The translations under genes were made by a program, and so were the position numbers. A stretch of DNA of 64,000 nt from Escherichia phage vB_EcoP_EcoN5, in sequence record MN715356. One strand, written 5' to 3'. The notes under the pieces are model-generated. The model was not told the origin of the DNA, did not search any database, and saw only the letters and a list, made by a program, of their open reading frames with translations. Within the stretch, counting starts at the first letter, position 1. The number at the start of each line of letters is the position of its first letter. Below are positions 30,113 through 30,553 of the stretch, piece by piece.

Positions 30113-30553
30113 TTACAAACAGATATAGACAGGTATGTCCATCTGATTTAGATATTTAAACATCATAGGTCTTACCTGAGATTGGTAATCTAGTCCTCCG
30201 TTGCTACAACCAAGTGGTGTTATGGCTAGAGAGGTGATTCCCTTATCTTTATAGGTAAGTAATAGCTTTTGTAAGCCTTGCTCTATCCACTCTATCTCAG
30301 AACCGTTTCTCCAATGCTTCTTAGTTGGAAAACACAGTCCTAGTCTCCCATCATTCAACCTCTGTAGGAGAAGTTGTCCGATCTGGAATCCAGAGTCGCA
30401 AGCAACCTTATACCTTTCAAAAGCTTCAGGGTATCTTCTTTTATACTCCTTAGCCACCCCTGCACCCATTACACCTACTAGGTTTACTGTGCAAGTTACT
30501 GTTTGAGCATCCACCGTGAAGACATTGGCTTTACCTTCAAAAACAATAGCCAT
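30113..30553 (-). CDS. macro domain protein (TARG1/DarG-like ADP-ribose hydrolase candidate)
   Basis: Motif [24 protein letters not shown] plus downstream [13 protein letters not shown]; start set to ATG 30553, which overlaps upstream stop (ATGA). Confidence 0.5.

Follow-up and report, generated by a model that had tools for sequence, protein, structure and literature searches.

Organization of the locus

The window, by which we mean the whole stretch of 64,000 nucleotides of Escherichia phage vB_EcoP_EcoN5 (sequence record MN715356) that was analysed, harbors a short gene for a macro-domain protein between a pair of spanin genes and the gene for a phage sigma factor. The 5 kb around the macro gene are 93-95% identical to the Escherichia phages NJ01, SU10, MN03 and other members of Kuravirus, a genus of phiEco32-like podophages, and the gene order there corresponds to phiEco32 genes 33-40. 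The features are listed in the reading direction of the operon, with positions of the window.

31912..31920, minus strand: gp36-holoenzyme promoter element TAATGTATA, an exact match upstream of the gene-40 homologue (motif search)
31852-31106, minus strand: gene-40 homologue
31067..31084, minus strand: terminator-like hairpin (AGCCACC-TCCG-GGTGGCT, then TTTTTT) separating the gene-40 homologue from the i-spanin gene (scan)
30698..31072, minus strand: i-spanin, Rz-like, likely start at 31048 (phrog_1152, 2.9e-37; annotations of relatives)
30553..30813, minus strand: o-spanin, an Rz1-like lipoprotein of 86 aa with lipobox TSAC (phrog_2425; orthologue in phage Paul)
30549..30555, minus strand: direct repeat TGATGGC, left copy, spanning the o-spanin stop and the macro start
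30113..30553, minus strand: macro-domain gene, predicted stand-alone DarG type, 146 aa (ORF, family, PDB and structure matches)
30091..30553, minus strand: cassette of 463 bp, consisting of the macro gene and a 22-nt spacer with an AAGGA Shine-Dalgarno sequence for the sigma gene (alignment with NJ01 and phiEco32)
30086..30092, minus strand: direct repeat TGATGGC, right copy, at the sigma start
29446..30093, minus strand: phage sigma factor, homologue of phiEco32 gp36, directly downstream of the cassette (phrog_1740, 6.3e-46)
29057-29449: SLOG/YspA-like ORF, two genes downstream of the macro gene (Pfam YAcAr, 5e-6)

The macro gene is read from 30553 to 30113 on the minus strand, and the A of its ATG (30553-30551) is shared with the TGA stop codon of the upstream ORF (TGATG). 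The 146-aa frame that a first-pass annotation, made from the sequence alone, had placed here is confirmed, and the translational coupling to the upstream gene that it had proposed is plausible in view of the stop/start overlap. The upstream gene had been called a lipoprotein gene, which is correct as far as it goes; the generic label is imprecise, as the match to phrog_2425 and the overlap with the i-spanin gene identify an o-spanin. The o-spanin carries the signal MRKLNQFFIMSALVMSTSAC, and its 261-nt orthologue in phage Paul is annotated as an o-spanin with a LipoP SpII site. On the other side of the cassette, the sigma ORF shows additional, weak matches to TIGR02937 and Sigma70_r2, and is followed by the SLOG/YspA-like ORF, a DUF3310 'dNMP kinase' and a 5'-3' exonuclease. 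Neither the SLOG ORF nor the gene-40 homologue gave a significant match in searches of PDB sequences. No ADP-ribosyltransferase partner is annotated in the related phage Paul, many of whose genes are hypothetical.

In phiEco32, the leftward gene cluster that includes the sigma gene 36 belongs to the middle class, and a gp36-dependent promoter with the consensus tAATGTAtA is located upstream of gene 40 (PMC8948821). By analogy, the TAATGTATA element is probably the middle promoter of an operon that extends into the spanin, macro and sigma genes. The operon had initially been described as early-type with a sigma factor: the sigma gene is there, the early assignment is not supported, given the middle class of the phiEco32 cluster and the exact gp36 promoter element. 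We infer from this correspondence that the macro gene is expressed in the middle class; such timing, shared with the replication genes, would be appropriate for an enzyme that acts in the repair of replicating single-stranded DNA. The hairpin at 31067..31084, for which a terminator is annotated at the equivalent position in phage Paul, may reduce the transcription that continues into the spanin, macro and sigma genes. A sigma-70 promoter that was published as predicted inside phiEco32 gene 37 was not reproduced in the window, where the best relaxed match reaches 8 of 12.

Family assignment and predicted fold

The protein matches the Pfam family Macro (PF01661) over residues 22-125 with 37.4 bits (E 2.8e-9, gathering cut-off 22), the PADLOC DarG profile with 1.5e-44 (profile positions 6-142 of 329), and the NCBIfam family antitoxin_DarG (NF048014) with 1.7e-41 (profile positions 6-144 of 338), the latter with a score of 142.6 bits that lies below the full-length cut-off of 250. 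A chance ORF is ruled out by the Pfam Macro and PADLOC DarG matches together with the dN/dS ratio given below. The protein also matches PHROG 335, annotated as 'phosphatase' (2.6e-32). The gene is the counterpart of phiEco32 gene 37, annotated as 'Appr-1-p processing enzyme family'; other phage records label it 'phosphatase' or 'hypothetical'. Assignment to the DarG type would correct the misleading legacy label 'Appr-1-p processing enzyme' or 'phosphatase'.

In a search of PDB sequences (phmmer), the three top matches are all DarG macrodomains, namely those of M. tuberculosis DarG (5m3i, 1e-26), of a Thermosipho DarTG fusion (7omu, 3.7e-25) and of T. aquaticus DarG (5m31, 4e-24). Human TARG1 and Poa1p are matched with E-values of only ~0.1 and ~0.9 (0.89), respectively. 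An AlphaFold2 model built on 43 homologues (mean pLDDT 96.6, pTM 0.90) consists of a mixed sheet and four helices. Comparison of this model with the PDB using Foldseek places DarG structures at ranks 1-4 (TM 0.87-0.92, rmsd 1.5-2.6 A), headed by T. aquaticus DarG (TaqDarG) with ADP-ribose (5m3e, TM 0.92, rmsd 1.5 A). TARG1 is found with a TM of 0.83, and Poa1p-type structures are found at rank 13 or lower (TM 0.81, 17-19% identity). The search yielded 180 PDB matches at E<=0.001 and, among the matches listed, all have the macrodomain fold, comprising natural macrodomains as well as designed hydrolases on a macro-type scaffold.

The profile and structure comparisons that had been suggested together with the first-pass annotation hence predict a macro fold, with DarG macrodomains as its nearest relatives. 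Of the original description 'TARG1/DarG-like', the DarG half is retained (1e-26, TM 0.92) and the TARG1 half is not (E ~0.1, and TARG1 D125 aligned to a Gly). Judged by sequence and model, the protein is a genuine DarG-type macro domain. Three other assignments were considered and rejected. A TARG1-type protein de-ADP-ribosylase is ruled out by the E-value of ~0.1 and the lack of conservation of D125. An Appr-1''-p phosphatase (Poa1p/MacroD-like) is rejected as the closest family, the DarG matches being better by many orders of magnitude. A full DarG antitoxin of a toxin-antitoxin pair is ruled out as the protein has neither the C-terminal domain nor a DarT neighbour.

Catalytic and pocket residues

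The residues required for activity have been described for TaqDarG (PMC5179494). The mutation K80A inactivates the enzyme, N22A has the second strongest effect on activity, and K29E as well as G119E lower it; W83 may stack on the modified thymine. Contacts to ADP-ribose include N8, T20, N22, V31, T79, G117, N120 and G121, and the pocket is lined by T20, T79, H82, W83, G117, N120 and G121 (PMC5179494). By alignment, the phage counterparts of TaqDarG residues are N10, T22, N24, V33, T77, K78, H80, W81, G115, N118 and G119. The catalytic lysine K78 (TaqDarG K80) is situated within T77-K78-K79-H80-W81 (motif FPTKKHW) and, as are N24, W81, G115 and G119, is invariant across 43 homologues; the presence of this lysine on alignment had been named beforehand as a point on which the macro-domain reading depends. 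K78 is also kept in an alignment with Taq and Mtb DarG, PhiKZ AdfM and TARG1. At the positions of N24 (TaqDarG N22) and W81 (TaqDarG W83) TARG1 has Ser and Ala, respectively, and TARG1 D125 aligns with Gly119 of the phage protein, a position that is likewise Gly in DarG.

The glycine-rich loop reads G115-C-S117-N118-G119-G120 and keeps 4 of the 5 positions of the TaqDarG loop G117-x-G119-N120-G121. At the position of TaqDarG G119 the window protein has S117, phiEco32 a Gly and the active PhiKZ AdfM an Ala; at that of TaqDarG K29 the window protein has A31, and PhiKZ AdfM again an Ala. The 18-residue peptide on which the first-pass annotation was based is found at residues 28-45 of the protein. 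It had been read as the catalytic-loop region and corresponds instead to the ADP-ribose-binding loop and helix (TaqDarG G25-R37 region).

A presence/absence cassette under purifying selection

In an alignment with NJ01, exactly 463 bp (window 30091-30553) are absent from NJ01, in which the o-spanin stop overlaps the sigma start. The 7-bp repeat TGATGGC at the cassette ends arises because the macro and the sigma gene both begin with ATGGC, and an in silico deletion between the repeats results in the NJ01-type junction, except that the stop codon is TGA here and TAA in NJ01. The window is a mosaic in this region, as it combines a short NJ01-type kinase gene with a phiEco32-type macro cassette.

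The distribution of the cassette was surveyed with the spanin-to-sigma segment as query, which matches 100 phage records. Cassette bearers, that is, records aligning over at least 80% of the query, account for 39 of these; in most of the others ~72% of the query is aligned and the matched span is shorter by ~463 bp, consistent with absence of the cassette. A tblastn search at >=90% identity likewise finds the protein in 39 records, and the agreement of both counts indicates that macro-less phages appear to have no copy elsewhere. The macro gene is present in phiEco32, SU10, Bas90 and Bas91 and absent from NJ01, Bas87, Bas89 and Bas92; the distant Kuraviruses SU7, EP335 and ECBP2 (76-80% identity) do not have it either. 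In SU7, Bas87, EK010 and E20-1 a homing endonuclease is annotated inside the matched stretch.

The alleles of phiEco32 and EK5 differ from that of the window by 30-45 synonymous and 5-10 non-synonymous changes (dN/dS ~0.04), and the macro gene is under strong purifying selection. All 39 Kuravirus records that carry the gene preserve an uninterrupted ORF, as does a phage of another family. The gene is missing from ~60% of the close Kuraviruses and hence not needed on common hosts. The combination of an accessory distribution with strong purifying selection would be expected if the gene serves counter-defence and is of benefit only on certain hosts. There is also a small chance that the TGATGGC start-codon-to-start-codon design is a general way for phages to plug counter-defence genes into essential operons. 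Such a plug-in would bring along its own ribosome binding site for the downstream essential sigma gene and leave the operon undisturbed.

Cellular and phage relatives

Cellular homologues were searched in one genome per prokaryotic species (bacteria and archaea), and the best 80 loci were examined. The identity to the phage protein is 39-53% in these loci, and the match is to the N-terminal part of an ORF of usually 190-420 codons. In 70 of the best 80 loci the macro ORF is directly followed by a gene of one conserved family. Four representatives of this family were scanned, and each matches Pfam DarT (PF14487), with strong values for three (2e-25 to 8e-30) and a borderline value for the fourth (1e-4). 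As a DarT gene adjoins the macro ORF in these loci, the nearest cellular relatives are genuine DarTG pairs.

In a large protein collection, the nearest matches are all short (118-250 aa). Proteins with 67-83% identity have 146-180 aa, and several of them are encoded on contigs of ~52-54 kb. The Chaseviridae phage vB_EcoM_DE15 carries a copy with 80% identity at the protein level and 69% at the DNA level, which adjoins an SSB gene. In a rough neighbour-joining tree without support values, Kuravirus and Chaseviridae sequences form a clade inside the DarT-linked DarG radiation, with PhiKZ AdfM on a long branch of its own and T4 Tk.4 far outside. This placement suggests that the Kuravirus and PhiKZ genes are separate acquisitions. 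There is no DNA-level match to the gene among 5,426 complete E. coli genomes and all plasmid matches to it are below 60% identity, and a recent capture from E. coli's own DarG is therefore rejected.

Proposed function and alternatives

Taken together, we consider it likely, on the basis of sequence and model, that the gene product is a catalytically competent macrodomain of the DarG type that stands alone and acts as an AdfM-like orphan antitoxin countering DarTG2. We infer its enzymatic activity, its DNA-thymidine substrate and its anti-DarTG2 role. The core of the first-pass annotation, a phage-encoded macro domain as candidate counter-defence against ADP-ribosylation, is supported as far as computation reaches.

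DarTG systems are found among E. coli, where they restrict coliphages (PMC7003065; bioRxiv 10.1101/2025.11.20.689424). According to the proposed mechanism, the macro protein would be made together with the phage's middle (replication-period) genes. In an E. coli host with DarTG2, infection would free the DarT2 toxin, which would ADP-ribosylate thymidines in single-stranded phage DNA and thereby block replication. The pocket of the phage macrodomain (N10, T22, N24, V33, T77, G115, N118, G119) would hold the ADP-ribose moiety, and Lys78 would bring about cleavage of the ribose-thymine bond, restoring unmodified DNA. As the protein does not have the C-terminal domain of DarG, binding of DarT would not be needed. 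A literature search for Kuravirus together with DarTG found no paper linking them.

Macrodomains are versatile, and a protein, RNA or small-molecule ADP-ribose substrate is possible by sequence. One alternative, which we regard as unlikely, is that the macrodomain processes soluble ADP-ribose derivatives and not ADP-ribosylated DNA, maybe together with the SLOG/YspA-like neighbour. Candidate compounds are Thoeris-type cyclic or His-ADPR signals, ADPr-1''-phosphate and O-acetyl-ADPr. Small-molecule substrates of phage Macro/SLOG/NADAR genes were proposed in general terms by Iyer, Burroughs and Aravind (PMC9503650), and the co-occurrence and neighbourhoods of Macro and SLOG genes in phages (PMC9503650), the location of the SLOG-family ORF (29057-29449) in the same operon and the legacy label 'Appr-1-p processing enzyme' of the relatives are all in line with such a role. 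However, in NJ01, which has no macro gene, the SLOG gene persists with hardly any change, so that Macro and SLOG do not constitute a co-inherited module, and a functional Macro-SLOG module is weakened as a candidate. Affiliation with the DarT-linked DarG clade, retention of the DarG-specific W81 that is proposed to stack on thymine, and the much weaker matches to Poa1p-type phosphatases in sequence (E 0.9) and structure (TM 0.81, 17-19% identity) argue against soluble derivatives as well.

Reversal of protein or RNA ADP-ribosylation, either to counter other ADP-ribosyltransferase defences (e.g. RNA-targeting ARTs) or to tune a modification of the host RNA polymerase, is similarly improbable. 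TARG1, which removes ADP-ribose from proteins, indeed has the same fold (TM 0.83) and catalytic lysine, and a role at the polymerase would fit the location of the macro gene directly upstream of the sigma gene; yet the sigma gene works without the macro gene in ~60% of the related phages, TARG1 D125 is replaced by Gly as in DarG, the sequence is far nearer to DarG than to TARG1 (1e-26 versus 0.1), and the well-annotated relative Paul has no annotated ADP-ribosyltransferase. We assign an equally small chance to a broad 'eraser' that spreads between unrelated coliphages (Kuravirus, Chaseviridae) and has further ADP-ribose conjugates among its substrates. These might include marks on RNA or protein or ADPr-derived immune signals, with a possible cooperation with the SLOG protein of the operon. 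Finally, a remnant that has lost its function or does no more than bind ADP-ribose, carried along between the spanin and sigma genes, as might be read from the absence of the gene in most close relatives and from the Ser at the TaqDarG G119 position of the window allele (G119E reduces TaqDarG activity), is very improbable given a dN/dS of ~0.04 over 30-45 synonymous changes, the retention of all catalytic and pocket residues, and an ORF that is intact in 39 of 39 macro-bearing Kuravirus records as well as in a phage of another family.

An orphan antitoxin against DarTG2, which we prefer, would also be of practical interest. The cassette is present in ~40% of genomes that are otherwise 92-96% identical, and near-isogenic pairs are therefore supplied by nature, for instance in the BASEL collection (Bas90 and Bas91 with the gene, Bas87, Bas89 and Bas92 without). 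Such pairs could link the gene to host range on DarTG2-carrying E. coli, which would be useful in choosing or engineering therapy phages.

Comparison with known systems

The closest functional precedent is gp104 of PhiKZ, a stand-alone DarG2-like macrodomain named AdfM (anti-DarT factor macro; Morgan et al., Cell Rep 2026, PMC13309987). In vitro, DNA that DarT2 has ADP-ribosylated is cleared of the modification by AdfM; the protein also rescues DarT2 toxicity and is required for plating of PhiKZ and PhiPA3 on DarTG2 hosts (PMC13309987). The window protein is 41% identical to PhiKZ gp104 (E 3e-36, residues 1-138), and tblastn finds homologues in PhiKZ-like jumbo phages at 41%. Both are phage-encoded stand-alone macrodomains of ~150 aa without a DarT-binding domain, and both contain the motifs NxVGVMGAG, FPTK..W and LGC.NGGL; the Asn whose mutation weakens AdfM (PhiKZ N23) corresponds to N24 here. 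AdfM differs by a 9-residue insertion and a C-terminal tail, both absent from the window protein, and by its setting: PhiKZ, a jumbo chimallivirus, takes AdfM up into its phage nucleus, whereas the source of the window is a 77-kb E. coli podophage without a phage nucleus.

The DarG proteins of DarTG2 (T. aquaticus and M. tuberculosis; 5m31, 5m3e, 5m3i) belong to the same clade and share the fold (TM 0.89-0.92), the catalytic lysine and the pocket residues with the phage protein, whose closest cellular homologues adjoin DarT genes. DarG, however, comprises ~340 aa with a C-terminal DarT-binding domain, in contrast to 146 aa without it, and the window gene is not adjacent to a DarT gene but located between the spanin and sigma genes of a lytic phage.

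A second precedent is T4 Tk.4, also named AdfM, whose knockout sensitises T4 to DarTG2 (HIDEN-SEQ preprint, bioRxiv 10.1101/2025.11.20.689424). It is likewise a stand-alone macrodomain of a coliphage with the same functional concept, but the similarity is marginal (24% over 42 residues, E 6e-4 pairwise) and Tk.4 represents another macrodomain lineage. Human TARG1/OARD1 (4j5q, 4j5r, 4j5s) shares the macro sub-fold (TM 0.83) and a lysine, K84, equivalent to K78. It differs in its low identity (19-22%), in D125, which is not conserved here, in having Ala in place of W81, and in its action on Glu-linked protein ADP-ribose. AdfN, a NADAR orphan antitoxin of T4-like phages against DarTG1 (PMC11825919), provides a parallel in that the phage bears the enzymatic antitoxin half without the toxin; the NADAR fold is, however, unrelated to macro, and its target is guanine-linked ADP-ribose made by DarT1, not thymine-linked ADP-ribose made by DarT2.

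Neutralization of DarTG2 by phage DarG-like macrodomains is thus already established in PhiKZ and T4, and the concept is not new. The present analysis contributes the cassette structure, the natural near-isogenic pairs, evidence that the gene was acquired separately, and its occurrence in Chaseviridae as well. Without the C-terminal DarT-binding domain and without a DarT neighbour, the phage macro protein has the status of an orphan antitoxin and, by its sequence features, fits the AdfM class; the concept of countering DarTG2 would thereby be extended to a third, unrelated group, the Kuraviruses, which are therapeutic-type E. coli phages.

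Mosaicism and exchange of the macro cassette

The window combines alleles of different types on either side of the sigma gene (the gp36 homologue). The phiEco32-type macro cassette, which is absent from NJ01, stands alongside a short kinase allele of the NJ01 type:

28530-29066, minus strand: DUF3310 'dNMP kinase', short 178-aa NJ01-type allele (phrog_26149, 1.6e-101)

In phiEco32 and EK5 the same position is taken by an 894-nt gene. The window is therefore a mosaic, and the coexistence of both types points to recombination among Kuraviruses around the kinase/macro locus. In some Kuraviruses (SU7, Bas87, EK010 and E20-1), an HNH homing endonuclease is annotated inside the spanin-to-sigma stretch, that is, where the window carries the macro cassette. 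The alternative occupancy suggests that the o-spanin/sigma junction is a hot spot of recombination or insertion.

The macrodomain gene is also found outside this group. A copy with 80% protein identity, annotated as hypothetical, is encoded by vB_EcoM_DE15 (Chaseviridae; L004 3994-4434), a 54-kb E. coli myophage unrelated to the window phage, where it adjoins the SSB gene. Similar copies (67-83% identity) occur on metagenomic contigs of approximately 52-54 kb. Evidently, the gene transfers between coliphage families.

Neighboring genes and predicted promoters

Two further open reading frames lie downstream of the sigma gene:

29057-29449, minus strand: SLOG/YspA-like ORF, 130 aa (Pfam YAcAr 5e-6, slightly under the cut-off; phrog_289 'GTP-binding domain')
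27129-27530, minus strand: ORF with an HNH-like motif (DHIEPIV...CHKIK), 133 aa

The start of the former overlaps the sigma stop (ATGA), and its annotation in relatives varies between GTP-binding and chromosome segregation protein. Since macro-less NJ01 keeps the gene nearly unaltered, it belongs to the core set. Ligands of SLOG domains are nucleotides and derivatives of ADP-ribose. Equivalents of the latter ORF are annotated as 'HNH endonuclease' in phiEco32, NJ01 and Paul and as 'terminase small subunit' in EK5, the EK5 label probably being a mis-annotation.

Upstream, the intergenic region 31853-32376 harbors two exact matches to the gp36 promoter element known from phiEco32, TAATGTATA, followed on the minus strand by a gene-40 homologue:

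31912-31920, minus strand: gp36 promoter element
31984-31992, plus strand: gp36 promoter element
31106-31852, minus strand: gene-40 homologue, 248 aa (phrog_6599)

Both elements point apart within this single gap of approximately 520 bp, with near-copies at 31902-31910 and 31993-32001; no obvious gene lies downstream of the plus-strand element. Further exact copies occur at 5105, 22079 (plus) and 39277 (minus). Elements with one mismatch show no excess over chance overall (16 versus 18.7 expected). The gene-40 homologue, the first gene downstream of the predicted middle promoter, has neither a Pfam match nor a PDB sequence match. The Ptacy1479/1532 records list an 'ssDNA-binding protein' among the features of this region, possibly the gene-40 homologue itself, a candidate attribution.

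The leftward middle-gene cluster also includes, beside the sigma factor, the spanins:

30553-31072, minus strand: i-spanin and overlapping o-spanin

In the related phage Paul, holin and endolysin are distant, at 16549-17288 of the Paul genome within its rightward late cluster, so that two transcription classes share the lysis genes.
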